From a virus: a stretch of 64,000 nucleotides of DNA. The position numbers and the translations under genes were made by a program. The notes under the pieces are model-generated. The model was not told where the DNA came from and made no database searches. It saw nothing but the letters and a program-made list of their open reading frames with translations. The first letter of the stretch is position 1. Every line of letters begins with the position of its first letter. Positions 3,486 to 24,783 of the stretch are shown here, piece after piece. The stretch is taken from UHGV virus genome UHGV-0113858. One strand, written 5' to 3'.

Positions 3486-4397
3486 ATGTTTGATATTAAA
3501 AAGAAATTTACCAACAGCGAGATTAAAAGTCTAGAAGAACGGTATCATAAAAAGGTAGAGCGCACAAAGAAACGGGGTTTAGAATTCTCCTTGACCCTTG
3601 ATGACTGGTTCATGATGGGAGAAAAGCTTTTGGGCATCGGCCCGTGCGACTACACCAATATGAACTTTAGCACGAGGTCGGTACATGGCGAAAAAGACCC
3701 ATTGTATCCGACAGTTGAGCGCATTGACGATAAGAAAGGTTATGTTCGTGGAAATGTATGCGTTGTCTTGCAAAGAGCCAATGAATTGAAAGATCGTTTG
3801 GTTGACAAGAAAACAGCCATCACTATAATTGATCCGCTAGACCGTGAGATTGTGCAGGCTATGATACTGAATATGTCTAAAGACCATCTCGAAAAACTGA
3901 AAACTAAATATATCCCACAACAGGAGACAAAAATGGACATGAAAGAACACATGGCAGAAGTAGAAAAGAATCATAACACCGACTATAAAGAGCTTGCTGA
4001 ACACGAACACAAACAACCGCCTGCGGCAGAAGAAACCACTGCGCCTGTGGAAGTGGAGGCTGAACCGAAAGAAGCTATCAGTGTTGCACTGCCAGAAGAT
4101 GTAGCTGTTGCGCTTGCTTATGCAAATTACTGCAATACTTTTGCGAATGTCGGTATGAAAGTAAGTGTGACATATGCTCAGTTCAAGGCAAAATATATTC
4201 GCAGCACCTGTGCAATGACAGGAGAGAAGCTTACTGGTGAGCCTAAATCCATTCTGATTCTGGATCTTAACATTGGCTTTGCCAAAGATAATTTCATCAT
4301 CGTCTCCAAGAAAATGGAAACGGCTATGACTCAACTGATGATCCAGACGGGCCTTAGCCTGCCAAAAGTTACAGCGATGCTGAACAAGGTGGTGTAA
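3486..4397 (+). CDS. hypothetical protein with acidic Glu/Pro/Ala-rich central linker (303 aa)
   Basis: Perfect SD AAGGAG. ATG confirmed at 3486. Confidence 0.6.
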   Translation: MFDIKKKFTNSEIKSLEERYHKKVERTKKRGLEFSLTLDDWFMMGEKLLGIGPCDYTNMNFSTRSVHGEKDPLYPTVERIDDKKGYVRGNVCVVLQRANELKDRLVDKKTAITIIDPLDREIVQAMILNMSKDHLEKLKTKYIPQQETKMDMKEHMAEVEKNHNTDYKELAEHEHKQPPAAEETTAPVEVEAEPKEAISVALPEDVAVALAYANYCNTFANVGMKVSVTYAQFKAKYIRSTCAMTGEKLTGEPKSILILDLNIGFAKDNFIIVSKKMETAMTQLMIQTGLSLPKVTAMLNKVV

Positions 4398-11523: not shown

Positions 11524-11730
11524 GGGTTCTCGATCGACTTTTCGTTTTCAAAAACGTATTTGCTCTCACTATCAAAAAATTTTTCTCTATATCAACCGGG
11601 TTCTCGATCGGTTTTTCAAAATCGAGATCGTAATTGTTTTTTCTCTAGAAAAAATTTTTCGGCCCGGTTCTCGATCGAGATCTCAATTTCCAGATCGTAT
11701 TTGTTTTCTTACGCGAAAAAATTTTTTAGG
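11524..11730. repeat. three tandem roughly 67-75 bp repeats (iteron-like; core GGTTCTCGATCG ... TTTTCAAAATCG ... AAAAAATTTTTC)
   Basis: Core motif at about 11524, 11598 and 11665. The A6T5C motif recurs at 11574, 11649 and 11715. Confidence 0.7.
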
Positions 11731-11787: not shown

Positions 11788-11835
11788 AATGAGAAGCATT
11801 CTTATTTAGTTATTTGAATGATAATCATTCTCATT
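11788..11835. promoter_or_regulatory. two adjacent imperfect copies of the palindrome AATGAGAAnCATTCTCATT (operator-like)
   Basis: aatgagaagcattcttatt at 11788-11806 and aatgataatcattctcatt at 11817-11835. Confidence 0.5.
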
Positions 11836-15553: not shown

Positions 15554-15579
15554 GCCGGGGATAATTCCCCGGCTTTTTT
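15554..15579 (+). terminator. rho-independent terminator gccgggg-ataatt-ccccggc then T6
   Basis: Seen directly in the sequence. Confidence 0.7.
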
Positions 15580-15608
15580 ATGCAAAATAGTGAATATGGC
15601 GAGATCTC
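15578..15608. repeat. 31-bp element TTATGCAAAATAGTGAATATGGCGAGATCTC (copy 1 of 2 identical copies)
   Basis: Identical copy at 19312-19342. A related ATGCAAAAAGTGAATAATG is at about 19488. Confidence 0.7.
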
Positions 15609-15882
15609 AGCGCAGCAATGCACTTACCAGGGTTACACATTGAAGCGCTTAGAATCGATTTGAGGGCGTTTTAGATGGTATCCGATAACCGCGCCCCGCT
15701 CAAAACGCCGAAAATTTAGTTACCGGTTGAAACTAATTGCATAACAGCGATTTTCTATGCACATCACTGCATATGAGAACAGTTCTCAACAATTCTTAAA
15801 AATATTTGTTGCATCCTGGCGGCGTTATGCTATCCTTTAATCAGTGGCGGAATTCACCGCCACACTGAAAAAGGTAAACACT

Positions 15883-19161: not shown

Positions 19162-19311
19162 TAGGAAAAATCTTTACAATTCCAGGGCTTGTTTTCGGTC
19201 CTGGTTTTTGTTATTCTGTTTTTGAAGCGGCAACGATGGACACCGGAGGAAAGTCACCGGAGGTGCCCGCTATTATGGTAATGAGAATTACTCTCAACAA
19301 CACCTAAAATC

Positions 19312-19342
19312 TTATGCAAAATAGTGAATATGGCGAGATCTC
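19312..19342. repeat. 31-bp element TTATGCAAAATAGTGAATATGGCGAGATCTC (copy 2)
   Basis: Identical to 15578-15608. Preceded by an AATGAGAAT half-site at 19280-19288. Confidence 0.7.
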
Positions 19343-20403: not shown

Positions 20404-20634
20404 ATGATTAATATTAGTGTTGACAAGTTAGCCGAAATCATCCAGAAAGCAGGCGATGAAAAATATGGCGTAAACGATTGTTATTTCATTGGGCAGTATG
20501 AGGACGGGCGCTATTATGGTGTGTTGTCTAACAAGGTGAAAAGCCGTAGCAGCGCCGCACAATTGCGCCGCCCGGAGTTTTTAGAACAAAAGGGCCTTAA
20601 AGTAATAAAAGTAATTAAACGCAAAAAAGGTTAA
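20404..20634 (+). CDS. hypothetical protein (76 aa)
   Basis: Hairpin cggggcg-ctag-cgccccg, then GAGGTAAAGCAATTATG. Confidence 0.5.
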   Translation: MINISVDKLAEIIQKAGDEKYGVNDCYFIGQYEDGRYYGVLSNKVKSRSSAAQLRRPEFLEQKGLKVIKVIKRKKG

Positions 20635-20846
20635 TGATCATGAGAACTGTAAAAGCGAAGGAATTAAAAGGCGGAATGGTCATTGAGTTACCGGACATTG
20701 CACCAGGCTTTAAGCCGGGTAGCGTCCTCATCACACAAATAGAAATCGAAGCGCCCCACATTGTGGAAGTATCTTTCTATTACAAAAAGCGCTATATGGC
20801 CGACCTTTATCACCCTGAGGCGGAATTTAAACTAATCGGTGAATGA
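20634..20846 (+). CDS. hypothetical protein (70 aa)
   Basis: TAATGA-type overlap. Confidence 0.45.
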   Translation: MIMRTVKAKELKGGMVIELPDIAPGFKPGSVLITQIEIEAPHIVEVSFYYKKRYMADLYHPEAEFKLIGE

Positions 20847-20959
20847 GGCTGTAAAGAAAAGGCAACTAATTAAAAAGCGCTTGCCTGGCCAGATGTTTTC
20901 GACTATTATTTATTTCAGGGCGGGAAGATAATCAACCCGCAAAACCGAAGGTAAATAAA

Positions 20960-21130
20960 ATGTCAAATATCCGCTACAATATCAAAAGCACTTCAAAAAC
21001 CGGTTATGTGTCTTATGTTCGCCAGGGGTCTACAACTGCTTGGACCTTTGAAGAATGTATGAAAATTGTTACTACGCTTTCAGGTGATGATCGCTATATG
21101 GGCGTTTTATTTGAGATTGAATTAGCTTAA
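20960..21130 (+). CDS. small protein (about 56 aa)
   Basis: GAAGGTAAATAAAATG. Manual translation MSNIRYNIKSTSKTGYVSYV... Confidence 0.4.
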   Translation: MSNIRYNIKSTSKTGYVSYVRQGSTTAWTFEECMKIVTTLSGDDRYMGVLFEIELA

Positions 21131-21146
21131 TTAGCAAAATAACACC

Positions 21147-21172
21147 GGGGCGCTATTGCAGCGCCCTTTTTC
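21147..21172 (+). terminator. rho-independent terminator gggcgct-attgc-agcgccc then TTTTT
   Basis: Seen directly in the sequence. Confidence 0.65.
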
Positions 21173-21215
21173 GTCTGTTATTCTTCTATCTCCTTCATTA
21201 AACGAGTAACACCAA

Positions 21216-21479
21216 ATGACAAACATGATTTACACTGTAAGCAAAACAAGCCTTTTACGCGCTACCCTGCTGGCTTGCCTTATTGCTTTAGTGTCTAATA
21301 CGTGTTTTAACTCGCTGGCTTGCCTGGTAACGACTGAGACAATGGCGCAAGGTTTTAACACCATGATCGACGTTTTACAATTGACGTTTTACACTCTGAT
21401 TAAACTTAATCGCTTTAATCGTTTAGACCGTTATGATCTCCCTTTCTTGATCGCTGGCCTGCTGGCTATCGCGCTGTAA
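21216..21479 (+). CDS. putative membrane protein (87 aa)
   Basis: Hydrophobic segments. Weak RBS. Confidence 0.35.
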   Translation: MTNMIYTVSKTSLLRATLLACLIALVSNTCFNSLACLVTTETMAQGFNTMIDVLQLTFYTLIKLNRFNRLDRYDLPFLIAGLLAIAL

Positions 21480-23250
21480 GTCTCCACTACTCCCCAAAAA
21501 TAATGCCGGGCAACTCCCGCTTTTGTGTTTTTATACTTTAGGTTTTATCAATCAATAATCAAAAAGTGATAGATGACTAAAACCTGCATAATCGAGATCT
21601 CCAGACGGTAACCCACTAACCAGGGTAAGAGATAAAGCCCCTCAAAATGGCACATATTGCGCTTAAAATGGTATGGCCCTACCTAACAACCCCAACAATT
21701 AATAACGCATGTTATTAACTGAATAAAACATGCATTTTTAAGCATTATGTATGCATAGTGTGAGAATCGCTATCAAATGACAACTTTTATCATCTAGCCT
21801 ATTGTGTGAACTGGTTTTATTGAGCATAAAAATAAAATCTTGTCAAATAAAAATCGTTCGCGTAATCGTGGGGAGTGGCGCGAGCGTAGCGAGCGACACA
21901 ATAACACGGGAGTAACTCAAATGATAATCTCCCCGTCGCTAAAGCGATTAGCAACTAAAGTTGCTAACCCGTGGAACGGGCTATTATCATTTTCGTTCGC
22001 GTTATCGTGGCTCGTAGACGCCTAAGAGCGAATGAAAATTGTTATCATTAAGATGATTACATACGTAATCATTAACAGCCTAATTTTATCACATCGCCAC
22101 GATAACACCGATCACGCCCTGCGTGATCGCTCCCGTGTTATTGTGTCGATAGATATCGATTAGCGTAAACGCTAACCCGTTTCGGGCATTGATTGTGTCG
22201 GTATGTGATGATAACACATGGTTACTATATGCGATCAAATCGCATTAAATCGTGAATAATGGTTGACAAACCAGAATTATTGATAATGAAAACATGTTGT
22301 TTTTGAGCATAGTTTGCCTGAAGTGTCAATATAAATTTATCATAGGGAATAGCTATCAATCCCTTGCGTAGCAATAAAGAAAATAGTTACCTATTGTAAC
22401 TATTTCAATGCTTTAGCATTGCCGGGTATCCGGTCCGTAACGGTGTTGATGGGAATGATTATCATTGCGGAAATGCTCAAAGTATAGCTGTGTGTTAAAC
22501 ACAATTCTCTCTCCTTGTCAAGCTTTTATTTATAAATTTACAAAATATTTATATTTGCGGAATGATTCTCATTTCGAAATTGAATTCGAAATCGAAATAA
22601 TAATGATTCTCATTCGTCGTCTCATTCACAAAACAACCCTAAAACATGAATAATCACACATGAAACTATCACCACAGTAACAGTCACACCATGTAATGAC
22701 CTGAAGCGGCTGGCCTATGCGTCGCACTGGTAACATTGGGGCATTATTAGCTTGCTATGTGTTGTTATCTAGTGCGTATAACGTGTTTTATGTTAAATGG
22801 CGTAATTCATATAAATATAAACAAGTCAATAGCAAATCGTGCTCTAAGCTGGCAAACCATATGCTTGCTATGTATCACACACAATTATTATTAGTTTCGG
22901 CAAGTAACTATCATGTCTGAGGAGGCCCCGAGGAACCGGGAACCGGATCGACCTTGCCCATGATATTTTGTAAAGATCCGTAAAAATAGTTGACGCCCGG
23001 AGCTGTCCGTCTAGCACCTCAGACAGTGCGAATGCTCCAAAACACCCAGACAGATATTTTTCGGCAAGTGATATTTTCGGCAGGGGGCATGTTTTGATTT
23101 CCCCACGGGGGAAGGGGTGGTTATACGGGGAAAACAGGGGCCTGTTTACGGTATCGACATATCGGGGAGTCCCTTCAGATTGTGTGTTAATGAAATGAGT
23201 ACGTAGTACAATGAGAATCATTCTCATTTACAGACAACCGGGCAGGTCCG
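21480..23250. other. 1.8 kb noncoding, repeat- and palindrome-rich island (candidate origin, packaging or regulatory region)
   Basis: No credible ORF. Direct repeats CGTTCGCG(T/A)TATCGTGG (about 21854 and 21994). Inverted GTTATCGTGGC / GCCACGATAAC (about 22000 and 22097). GATAACAC repeated three times. Palindromes TTAGCAAC-TAAA-GTTGCTAA (about 21947) and TTAGCGT-AAA-ACGCTAA (about 22160). TCGAAAT repeated three times (about 22575). Confidence 0.6.
23210..23228. promoter_or_regulatory. perfect 19-bp palindrome AATGAGAATCATTCTCATT (operator-like), at the right edge of the noncoding island
   Basis: Related copies AATGATTCTCATT at 22561-22573 and 22602-22614. Confidence 0.55.
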
Positions 23251-23332
23251 GTGATTGTTTCGTGCAGCCTCAGCACCTGTTGCTGTGTGCAGGATAACAG
23301 GGTTGCCTATTCAGGTCAACCCCTTCGTGCGG

Positions 23333-23620
23333 TCACCACTGATGAAATCTTTTGTGCTCCCATCTCGCCCGGCTGATGATACACCACATAGCCTGTTCAT
23401 CATAGAAACCAAGCGCTTTAAGCTCTTGCTTCACATCGCTCAACTGTGCGTATAAATAAAGCTTTTTACTACCTTGACGCAGGAGGATAGCTGGTACAAG
23501 TGTCTTTGCATAGTCCAACAACACCTCTATTCTCTGCCTTTTCCCTTCAGATTTCTTGCGTGGGCAATTCCTGATGTGTGCCAGTTTTGCTGGCGCTTTT
23601 ACTACTTTGTTGAAAGCCAT
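23333..23620 (-). CDS. hypothetical basic protein (95 aa)
   Basis: SD TAAGGAACCTCTATG. Confidence 0.5.
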   Translation of the reverse strand: MAFNKVVKAPAKLAHIRNCPRKKSEGKRQRIEVLLDYAKTLVPAILLRQGSKKLYLYAQLSDVKQELKALGFYDEQAMWCIISRARWEHKRFHQW

Positions 23621-23629
23621 AGAGGTTCC

Positions 23630-23800
23630 TTAAAGAATGGTTGTGATGATCAGACATTGTTGTGTGGTTCTCATCATTGCATGGGTGGCCTGGCCCGTTG
23701 GAGGGTCGTTATTGTCATCATCGTCATCTACGAATAAGGTAAGGACCACCACCACGATGGCAACAATCCCCAACACCCAAAGAACTATAAGTCCCATCAT
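23630..23800 (-). CDS. small membrane protein (about 56 aa) with acidic DDDDDN loop
   Basis: Manual translation MMGLIVLWVLGIVAIVVVVLTLF... Overlaps the upstream stop. Confidence 0.4.
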   Translation of the reverse strand: MMGLIVLWVLGIVAIVVVVLTLFVDDDDDNNDPPTGQATHAMMRTTQQCLIITTIL

Positions 23801-23913
23801 TCATCCTTCTTAGCCACTGGCCCAATAGATACGTACAACATCATCCCATAAGGGATAAGGATCAGGAGCACTGTAATCAGCATCCCTAGTAATAAGAAAC
23901 CCATGTCGTCCAT
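23797..23913 (-). CDS. small membrane protein (about 38 aa)
   Basis: SD GAGGAGAATTTTATG. Manual translation MDDMGFLLLGMLITVLLILIPYGMMLYV... Confidence 0.4.
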   Translation of the reverse strand: MDDMGFLLLGMLITVLLILIPYGMMLYVSIGPVAKKDE

Positions 23914-23942
23914 AAAATTCTCCTCGTGTAATTGATAGAGGG

Positions 23943-23971
23943 AGTATAATCGCCGAGCCTGTTTACGTCAA
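23943..23971 (-). promoter_or_regulatory. sigma70 promoter (minus strand) TTGACG-N17-TATACT
   Basis: The reverse complement of 23943-23971 gives ttgacg taaacaggctcggcgat tatact. Confidence 0.55.
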
Positions 23972-24036
23972 GGTAAATTGATGCTCCACTTTAGATAAAA
24001 GAAAAGGAGCCTCTTCAGACTCCCTTGTGGTGTGGG

Positions 24037-24465
24037 TCAGATATTCTTGACTGCGATCAGGTTTGGGACATACGTACATGTTGGGGAGTAAGGGGTGTCC
24101 TTCCTGCGAAGCTGTGTCTTGCACAGAGAAGCATGTGATTGTGTGTCCACAGGCTCTCGGTCATAGAACGGATATCCGCTGCACATGTACGGGCGATCCT
24201 CGTAAATTGAGCACTTGTTGTCTTTCAGCTTTGTGCAGGTAAAGTAGCTGGTGAAGTGATTTGTTCCTTTACCAACTTCCTCACGACCTGTAACAACAAG
24301 AGGATTCCGTTTGTAGGCCTCATCCCTGGAGATTGGTTTCATCATCTCCCCGTGGATAGCAGATATTCTTCCGGCCCTGATTTTTTCGTGGAAGTCTTCG
24401 TGGGTGATGTTGTCTATGGCGATAACTTCACAACAGGCACTGCAATTATGGCAATGTTTTATCAT
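24037..24465 (-). CDS. Cys-rich protein (142 aa; CHNCSACC..., many Cys/His)
   Basis: ORF-track entry. Probable Zn-binding. Confidence 0.5.
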   Translation of the reverse strand: MIKHCHNCSACCEVIAIDNITHEDFHEKIRAGRISAIHGEMMKPISRDEAYKRNPLVVTGREEVGKGTNHFTSYFTCTKLKDNKCSIYEDRPYMCSGYPFYDREPVDTQSHASLCKTQLRRKDTPYSPTCTYVPNLIAVKNI

Positions 24466-24783
24466 TTATAACCTCATCCAGGTTTGATAGTCAGCTTCTG
24501 TGTGGTGCTCATCCCGTGCAACCTTTTGTGGTGGAGCAGGGTTCTTTGCAGCAGCTTCCATGATTCCCCGTGGGTCGGGGTCTTCAATCAGGTGTTTGTG
24601 TTCATCACAGGCGTAATGCTTGTACCAGTCACGCAGTCCCCACGGTGGTTGGTATTTCGTCATAACTGTGCAGCGCCTGCGGATGCCAATGGCTTTGCAG
24701 AATTTGCAGTAGGTTATAGGTTTGCACTTCTTCAGCGGGATAGCTTTCATTATCACCCCGCAAATGGATGGTGCAGAATACAC
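24466..24783 (-). CDS. Cys-rich protein (105 aa; CKFCK...C, YACDEHKH)
   Basis: ORF-track entry. Confidence 0.5.
   Translation of the reverse strand: MYSAPSICGVIMKAIPLKKCKPITYCKFCKAIGIRRRCTVMTKYQPPWGLRDWYKHYACDEHKHLIEDPDPRGIMEAAAKNPAPPQKVARDEHHTEADYQTWMRL

Follow-up and report, generated by a model that had tools for sequence, protein, structure and literature searches.

A conserved covarying fold beside a probable 514-bp direct terminal repeat in the gene-free island of a Mydovirus-like phage

The 64,000-nt stretch of viral DNA analyzed here (UHGV virus genome UHGV-0113858; referred to as the window) contains a gene-free island for which a preliminary description, made from the sequence alone, had proposed a replication origin, a packaging or injection-control site, or a cluster of structured non-coding RNAs. 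This island appears to be the genome-end, or concatemer-junction, region of a phage. Positions 22498-23011 are very probably a 514-bp direct terminal repeat, and the nearby segment 21894-22148 is a conserved structured nucleic-acid element whose base pairs are maintained by compensatory substitutions, with the layout of a four-way junction. T7-type formation of the genome ends at the island, together with a fold that acts in cis at the DNA level, is favored as the joint best explanation and is considered fairly probable.

The region 21480-23250 was matched by 54 phage records, in identity bands from 80-90% to at least 99%; nearly all of these are Klebsiella, Proteus, Raoultella, Salmonella and Cronobacter myoviruses of 135-150 kb that belong to the Vequintavirinae. 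The closest matches are in the genus Mydovirus, and the source phage is Mydovirus-like and of a Klebsiella type. The island was compared with relatives in a first alignment of 8 phages and in a fold alignment of 18 phages from two genera.

Terminal repeat and genome ends

The segment 22498-23011 is 94-97% identical to the orthologous 514-bp direct terminal repeat of relatives. Its match in phage KPP-1 is exactly 116316-116829 of MT438396, a region with about twofold read coverage that PhageTerm assigned to a 514-bp direct terminal repeat and T7-type packaging (PMC9862379). In the record of phage DP (OP296941), repeat_region features are annotated at 1-514 and 145135-145648; these copies are identical to each other and both map to 22498-23011. 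The record of phage KP12 terminates at window position 23011, and three independent records (DP, KPP-1 and KP12) hence put ends or boundaries at the same two fixed positions. The packaging site that had been proposed for the island is thereby supported, since the segment agrees to the base in extent with the repeat mapped in KPP-1 and also matches the one annotated in DP. Terminal repeats, of 459 bp, have also been reported for the Vequintavirus Gotham (PMC7471380). No 16-mer of 22498-23011 recurs in the 64-kb window; the repeat presumably occurs once because the assembly collapsed both ends. The left end of the genome would lie at 22498 and the right end at 23011, so that virion DNA would carry the repeat at both ends, with 21480-22497 as the last unique DNA of the right genome end and 23012-23332 as the first unique DNA of the left one.

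The motif at the right boundary, TGTCCGTC/TAGCAC (the slash marks the end of the repeat), is kept in three genera, Mydovirus, Seunavirus and Avunavirus. Just to the right of it lie short direct repeats, whose place is taken by two copies of CAGATGGTG in Mydo and KPP-1 and by three copies of CCTTCAGAGAT in Av-05; these repeats are candidate terminase-binding sites. An early-promoter-like element, AAAA-N3-GTTGAC-N17-TAGCAC (22982-23017), spans the same boundary, and the putative cut would fall exactly between its spacer and the -10-like hexamer; this geometry is retained in GEC_vB_MG and not in PVP-SE1 or GAP31. At the other boundary, the putative left end lies at the center of a small palindrome, TGTGTTA/AACACA (22491-22503), which is found only in the window and Mydo, with TGCTAA/ACAC in the other relatives. 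About 135 bp to the left of the terminal repeat is TATCAATCCCTTG (22352-22364), kept in the five aligned Mydovirus relatives and altered in Seunavirus, which fits the IHF consensus WATCAANNNNTTR. The ends of database records were also considered as a way to locate the terminal repeat of rV5-type phages, and no informative record was found; the 'repeat_region' of navn is only 36 bp. The record of SalP219 begins at about window position 22021, and since this start lies in the interior of hairpin H2 of the fold, the ends of that record are probably arbitrary.

A conserved four-way-junction fold

The fold consists of an outer stem around three hairpins, H1, H2 and H3 (Table 1). Before the 18 phages were aligned for the fold, the lineage-specific inserts of the window, Mydo and LNA4 were removed by hand. 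In this alignment 95.9% of cells are paired and both-sided changes are seen in 9 of the 46 pairs of the four stems (4 in the outer stem, 3 in H1 and 2 in H3); the tool count is 11 of 61 when a small hairpin in the interior of H2 is included. The covarying pairs of the outer stem and of H1 show zero violations, and those of H3 have 1 and 3 unpaired cells, the 3 being due to alignment shifts. The covariation score was 0.124, compared to 0.047 in shuffles (0 of 500 reach the observed score) and at most 0.028 in slid controls, and RNAalifold recovered the same fold independently. Folding of the 263-nt core gave z = -10 for each strand as RNA and z = -11.7 as DNA.

Conservation differs among the parts of the element. 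H1 reads ATGCGA..TCGCAT or AACGATA..TATCGTT in other phages, H3 reads GATCAAC..GTTGATC or GATTAGC..GCTAATC, and the 11-bp stem of H2 is invariant around a variable, AT-rich interior (22012-22095; 32% G+C) that holds the small hairpin of its own. Direct repeat copy 2 is likewise invariant and contributes, with its 3' part, the 5' arm of H2. Within copy 1 the ATCGTTCGCG part is present in 16 of the 18 phages and TCGTTCGCG is invariant; the rest varies without covariation with 22096-22106, and for this reason a role of copy 1 as a binding site is more likely than one as a partner for alternative pairing. In Av-05, from a third genus, the outer stem is kept with 3 further compensatory pairs (ACGCAGTAG with CTACTGCGT) and a nested 16-bp inverted repeat is present, with an interior that differs. 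The fold region is up to 83% conserved between genera, versus 70% for the neighboring gene, and the fold is always on the same side of the terminal repeat, including in Av-05; in the window it lies about 350 bp to the left of it.

The invariant 23-mer of the element was sought in 185,579 genomes of bacteria and archaea and matched 5 times, in each case in a lineage that is high-GC or uncultured and not enterobacterial; these matches are few and probably due to chance, and the element is thus taken to be phage-specific. In viral contigs the 23-mer was found in the same phages and in two metagenomic relatives. The 3' arm of the outer stem (GTGTTAT[A/T]GTGTC) is present as two or three direct copies in AV124, PVP-SE1, GEC_vB_MG and Av-05, at about 2098-2261 of the compared stretches of the first three and at 2581-2596, 2727-2744 and 2836-2849 of the Av-05 stretch, with a 92-nt hairpin-rich insert between copies; as there is one 5' arm, these copies give it alternative pairings that exclude one another. 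NINP13076 lacks the 3' half of the element where it would be expected, a sign of either a rearrangement or a faulty assembly.

Table 1. Features of the island, in order of window position
Position	Strand	Feature	Basis or occurrence
21507-21535	+	Terminator-like hairpin (GCCGGG-CAACT-CCCG) and T-run closing the + gene block	Read from sequence
21572-21601	+	Degenerate copy of repeated intergenic module, ending in GAGATCTC	Exact 30-nt copies at 15579-15608 and 19313-19342
21698-21719		Conserved palindrome/hairpin TTAATAAC-GCAT-GTTATTAA	Alignment; equivalent position in paralogous modules also holds hairpins
21761-21775		Fur-box-like palindrome TGAGAATCGCTATCA	TGAGAATCACTCTCA in 4 of 5 aligned Mydovirus relatives
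21855-21871	+	Direct repeat copy 1, CGTTCGCGTAATCGTGG	Alignment
21894-22148		Four-way-junction element; 19-bp outer stem (21894-21912 with 22130-22148) around H1, H2 and H3	Covariation, 18 phages
21919-21992		Hairpin H1, AAATGATA (21919-21926) with TATCATTT (21985-21992)	3 covarying pairs
21930-21982	+	53-nt triple-hairpin insertion in H1 loop: TCGC-TAAA-GCGA, TTAGCAAC-TAAA-GTTGCTAA, CCCGT-GGA-ACGGG	
21994-22010	+	Direct repeat copy 2, CGTTCGCGTTATCGTGG	
22001-22106		Hairpin H2, 11-bp stem GTTATCGTGGC (22001-22011) with GCCACGATAAC (22096-22106)	
22110-22128		Hairpin H3, GATCACGC-CCT-GCGTGATC	2 covarying pairs
22149-22204	+	Second double-hairpin insertion, TTAGCG-TAAA-CGCTAA and CCCGTTTCGGG; duplicated ATTGTGTCG on flanks	
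22375-22441	+	Patchy 67-nt three-hairpin insert	Alignment
22445-22469		Fur-box-like site GGGAATGATTATCATTGCG, 14/19 consensus matches, 30-50 bp left of terminal repeat	
22498-23011	+	514-bp direct terminal repeat (very probable), single collapsed copy	Homology to KPP-1 and DP; one copy in window
22561-22614	+	Two AATGATTCTCATT sites (22561, 22602) around three TCGAAAT copies (22574, 22586, 22592)	Conserved in Seunavirus
22962-23025	+	Conserved right-boundary motif GATATTTTGTAAAGATCC ... TGTCCGTC/TAGCAC, repeat ending at the slash	Alignments
23020-23082	+	Short direct repeats: CAGACAG x2 (23020, 23047), GATATTTT(T)CGGCA x2 (23053, 23070)	
23198-23228		31-nt insertion with perfect palindrome TGAGAATCATTCTCA (15/19 Fur-box consensus)	Missing from 8 aligned relatives

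Proposed mechanism and alternative explanations

Under the favored explanation, replication would join genomes through the terminal repeat, and the terminase would recognize the motif around TGTCCGTC/TAGCAC together with the adjoining short direct repeats and cut at about 22497/22498 and 23011/23012. The repeat would be duplicated in the process, giving two copies per packaged genome, as in T7. A cis role of the four-way junction at the DNA level, proposed by analogy, is possible and put forward tentatively: in unwound or single-stranded DNA the junction would fold as a hairpin or cruciform and could help to prime or resolve the duplication of the repeat. In T7, a hairpin containing the terminal repeat has been described as an intermediate of concatemer processing (PMC4281155). 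The covarying changes in the fold run from Watson-Crick pair to Watson-Crick pair and wobble intermediates are almost absent, as expected if both DNA strands must pair; that both strands of the core fold equally well by z score also supports a DNA-level reading. Further detail on the T7 hairpin intermediate is said to have been given by Chung, Nardone and Hinkle in 1990. A wider proposal, that a ~250-nt four-way junction inside the right genome end is an essential cis-acting structure of the Vequintavirinae (a DNA hairpin or cruciform, or an RNA) for repeat duplication, replication initiation or the start of packaging, and that the surrounding double-hairpin modules (TTAGC..GCTAA and CCCGT..ACGGG) move or shuffle only in the terminal region, has to be regarded as doubtful.

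Several points weigh against this explanation. The ends of this phage are deduced from relatives that are 94-97% identical, and PVP-SE1 and phiTE had been reported, from restriction analysis, to be circularly permuted (PMC3475682), so that packaging may differ within the subfamily. Its position and an analogy to T7 are the grounds for assigning the fold a part in end processing, and the distance between fold and repeat varies from about 230 to 350 bp. Invariant junction bases and insertions in loops are equally typical of structured RNA. Moreover, the few variants that are not Watson-Crick, 9 A.C cells, would pair as G.U on the minus strand, a hint of one folded strand and not of a symmetric cruciform.

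These last observations are also what would be seen if the four-way junction were a ~260-400-nt structured non-coding RNA, expressed from the terminal region, with the minus strand the likelier one to be read, and acting in trans (for instance in regulation, anti-defence or packaging), with the terminal repeat as a separate feature. Such an RNA would account for the compensatory changes in three helices, the invariant junction bases, the confinement of insertions to hairpin loops, the retrieval of the fold by RNAalifold and the 9 A.C cells, which would become G.U pairs. The minus strand is also the more stable one (-117 versus -106 kcal/mol) and has a GC-rich hairpin followed by ATTTTTATTT at its 3' side (21855-21886 and flank), and in the related phage phiTE an intergenic locus gives rise to a non-coding RNA that is functional (PMC3475682). 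G.U intermediates are, however, nearly absent among the many transitions, which is unusual in RNA helices, and Av-05 has replaced the interior and retained only the outer inverted repeat. In addition, a scan of both strands of 20500-24500 with the covariance models of Rfam 15, which include phage RNAs, gave zero matches at E<=1. Neither strand of the island showed a conserved sigma-70 promoter of normal geometry, only weak consensus matches being present, and the island yielded no convincing conserved terminator for the fold as RNA. An RNA of this kind is considered rather unlikely but a serious alternative; of the structured non-coding RNAs that the preliminary description had proposed, structure is borne out by covariation while RNA nature is not. 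A separate candidate for a phage promoter, TGAGCATA-N12-TGTCAA (reverse complement TTGACA-N12-TATGCT), was rejected; it occurs only in the island and its spacer of 12-14 in relatives is too short for sigma-70.

That the conserved core (~21650-22150) is the lytic replication origin is unlikely, though also a serious alternative; in this case an initiator would bind to the inverted repeats and to iterons (two copies of ATCGTTCGCG and ATTGTGT-type repeats), with the AT-rich interior of H2 as the site of unwinding. Direct repeats with a near-invariant core, the invariant 11-bp inverted repeat around a variable spacer of 32% G+C, the strong clustering of ATTGTGT, the extra direct copies of the GTTATTGTGTC arm in Av-05, AV124, PVP-SE1 and GEC_vB_MG, and a core conserved up to 83% between genera compared to 70% for the adjacent gene would all fit an origin. 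Arrays of binding sites, however, do not need the arm-to-arm complementarity that is kept here at variable positions; no DnaA-box match was noticed when the sequence was read by eye, and an initiator gene was not identified adjacent to the core. GC skew was rejected as an origin marker because at the island it only follows the change in the direction of transcription, an explanation also given for rV5 (PMC3606486). The argument for an origin from position is undercut as well: it assumed that the minus block is divergent, and the flanking blocks in fact converge, with + genes ending at 21479 and - genes from 23333 facing the island. Transcription that converges from both sides, along with many lineage-specific insertions and deletions of hairpin modules, could instead point to a T5-style injection-stop region, or to a spacer prone to recombination, in which terminators and small mobile hairpins accumulate and which lacks a specific function. 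Either is highly improbable, since purifying selection on the non-coding sequence is evident from the long blocks without variation and from the compensatory changes in three genera. The injection-stop signal of T5, which brings about DNA transfer in two steps, sits within a terminal repeat of 10 kb that carries pre-early genes; the repeat found here is 514 bp long and gene-free.

Hairpin modules inserted in and around the fold

The preliminary description noted two similar palindrome-plus-hairpin units in the island. Both are present (TTAGCAACTAAAGTTGCTAA at 21948 followed by CCCGTGGAACGGG at 21968, and TTAGCGTAAACGCTAA at 22160 followed by CCCGTTTCGGG at 22176), with the correction that the second palindrome actually reads TTAGCG-TAAA-CGCTAA. 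They correspond to the insertions at 21930-21982, found among the aligned phages only in the window and Mydo, and at 22149-22204, which none of the 8 relatives in the first alignment has; in FENT2 a near-identical unit directly follows the element. The insert at 22375-22441 is present in Mydo, KPP-1, KB57 and PVP-SE1 and not in Ro1, AV124, GEC_vB_MG and GAP31, a distribution that ignores phylogeny. The module design is a TTAGC-stem-GCTAA palindrome directly followed by CCCGT-loop-ACGGG, and modules of the same design are found at other positions or in other orientations in the islands of Ro1, AV124, PVP-SE1, GEC_vB_MG, KE22, FENT2, LNA4, NINP13076 and Av-05; none was found elsewhere in the 64-kb window. 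The stems vary in length and sequence, with complementarity retained. The palindrome-plus-hairpin units are lineage-specific insertions of a small double-hairpin module, which, judging from its patchy presence, may be mobile. Target-site duplications were rejected as proof of transposition since they were seen only where an insert abuts the ATTGTGTC repeat and not for the others. A search of viral contigs with the pattern GCTAACCCGT-N3-6-ACGGG gave 82 matches, by a rough estimate not above the chance level, and was uninformative.

Fur-box-like sites and other repeats

The island contains 11 Fur-box-like 19-mers compared to 0.9 expected. These sites read TGAGAATnATTCTCA, match 13-15 of the 19 consensus positions, and cluster in the island and in the intergenic DNA of the + block; they differ from the Fur box (GATAATGATAATCATTATC; 7-1-7 form TGATAATnATTATCA) by a symmetric T-to-G and A-to-C change at one position of each half-site. 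One of them overlaps a weak promoter-like sequence, TTTACA-18-AATGAT, and is a candidate operator. The Fur-box-like palindromes could serve as operators through which a host or phage regulator acts on end-proximal promoters, a phage protein being an equally good candidate for the binding partner as Fur. If host Fur binds these sites, transcription near the ends of the phage genome would be tied to iron status. In the + block, Fur-box-like intergenic palindromes (TGAGAAGCATTCTTA, TGATAATCATTCTCA, TGAGAACAGTTCTCA and TGAGAATTACTCTCA) were observed at 11790-11834, 15774-15788 and 19282-19296, and the site at 11814-11838 matches 15 of the 19 consensus positions.

The nested repeats that had been described for the island are real and exceed chance, as indicated by the z score of about -10 for the core, by the number of Fur-box-like 19-mers and by ATTGTGT, of which 7 of the 13 copies in the window fall in the island (2.8% of the window; Poisson P ~1e-7). 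The direct repeats (CGTTCGCGTAATCGTGG at 21855 and CGTTCGCGTTATCGTGG at 21994), the inverted copies (GTTATCGTGGC at 22001 and GCCACGATAAC at 22096) and the TCGAAAT triplet were located as described. A reported triplet of GATAACAC proved to be two exact copies (22101 and 22210), and only the shorter ATAACAC is present three times on the + strand (21901, 22102 and 22211). The AATGATTCTCATT sites, which are Fur-box-like palindromes, exist at 22561 and 22602 and as the palindrome AATGAGAATCATTCTCATT at 23210, but not at the ends of the island, where they had been placed: two are inside the terminal repeat near its left edge, and the palindromic copy is in an insertion 200 bp past its right edge. 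The left third of the terminal repeat, which carries the AATGATTCTCATT/TCGAAAT cluster, is AT-rich (28% G+C).

Gene content of the island and flanking blocks

The gene-free span is 21480-23332 and slightly exceeds the 21480-23250 of the preliminary description. The last + strand gene stops at 21479, the next real gene is 23333-23620 on the - strand, and everything to the right of 23333 is on the - strand and transcribed toward the island; this convergent layout is likewise annotated in Mydo, KPP-1, KB57, Ro1, AV124, PVP-SE1 and GAP31. None of the 7 longest open reading frames (ORFs) of the island (43-119 aa) keeps its frame across the 8 relatives, where frames are lost or stops gained, although the nucleotides of these regions are conserved. 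Because frames break in relatives, the small ORFs, including a 119-aa minus-strand ORF (22868-23227), were rejected as genes, and the homologous region was found not to be coding in the relatives, so that the claim of a noncoding island survives. The small coding sequences annotated in the islands of relatives do not coincide in position between records, and calls of small 'hypothetical proteins' in this gap probably do not represent real genes. A scan of the window for transfer RNA genes found none.

At the left side of the island, the terminator-like hairpin is kept as GCCGGG..CCCGGCTTTTG in Mydovirus relatives, with a terminator annotated in Mydo and PVP-SE1; one G has been lost at 21520-21523 (CCCGCTTTT here, CCCGGCTTTT in relatives), which makes the stem one G shorter in the window. 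The hairpin is followed by a degenerate copy (21570-21800) of an intergenic module. The 30-nt repeat TATGCAAAATAGTGAATATGGCGAGATCTC that heads this module was observed as two exact copies in the + block and as the degenerate third one in the island, and GAGATCTC occurs also at 11677. Every copy of the repeat stands at the head of a ~250-nt module, which has a terminator on one side and the next early promoter on the other; blocks are shared among the modules, and a hairpin is present at the same position in them, though its sequence differs. The hairpin at 21698-21719 reads TTGATAAC..GTTATCAA in Seunavirus, a compensatory change from A:T to G:C. Between the fold and the terminal repeat, 22150-22497 is a variable stretch, and to the right of the repeat, 23012-23332 holds the short direct repeats, then a G-rich hairpin and then the palindromic insertion. 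Near the end of the - block, a hairpin GTGC-AGCCTCA-GCAC (23262-23277) covaries with CTCC..GGAG in KB57, Ro1, AV124 and GAP31; since there is a U-run on neither strand, it is not an obvious terminator.

Novelty and comparison with known systems

The terminal repeat is already known in close relatives. By comparison, the covarying fold is apparently undescribed, as are the restricted hairpin modules and the Fur-box-like cluster, for which no description was found in the accessible literature, of which coverage is incomplete. How phages with short direct terminal repeats duplicate them during concatemer cutting is still debated even for T7, and the process is nearly unstudied in large myoviruses, several of which are under development as therapy against Klebsiella, Salmonella and E. 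coli. The covarying fold, constant in its side relative to the repeat, the conserved motif at the cut site and the candidate binding repeats make the region a concrete target for mutation, and annotators would gain the true start and end positions of these genomes.

The 514-bp repeats of KPP-1 (PMC9862379) and DP (OP296941) have the same length and boundaries as the one in the window, with 96% identity and the same convergent blocks of small genes; in those accounts the repeat is described only as a coverage feature, and the fold, the hairpin modules and the Fur-box-like sites are unmentioned. Gene-free gaps at the same convergent position are found in PVP-SE1 (2.3 kb), rV5 (2.6 kb) and Av-05 (1.9 kb). 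The rV5 gap was drawn as a 'non-coding' box, with no comment or function (PMC3606486). No detectable sequence is shared between rV5 and the window; in the rV5 gap (3740-3974 of the compared stretch), GACATAATATAAAAGCAG and its complement, 149 nt apart, form a perfect inverted repeat of 18 bp, inside which ATAGTTGCCTTG recurs several times and in either orientation.

The concatemer junction of T7 and T3 resembles the island in having a short gene-free direct repeat with fixed ends, KPP-1 being T7-type by PhageTerm, and a hairpin-capable inverted repeat lies here just inside the right genome end. Unlike T7 and T3, the phage would be a 145-kb myovirus without an RNA polymerase of its own, going by the related CB7 (PMC7344957), its repeat is 514 bp and not 160 bp long, and the structure next to it is not a simple hairpin but a four-way junction with arms 217 nt apart.

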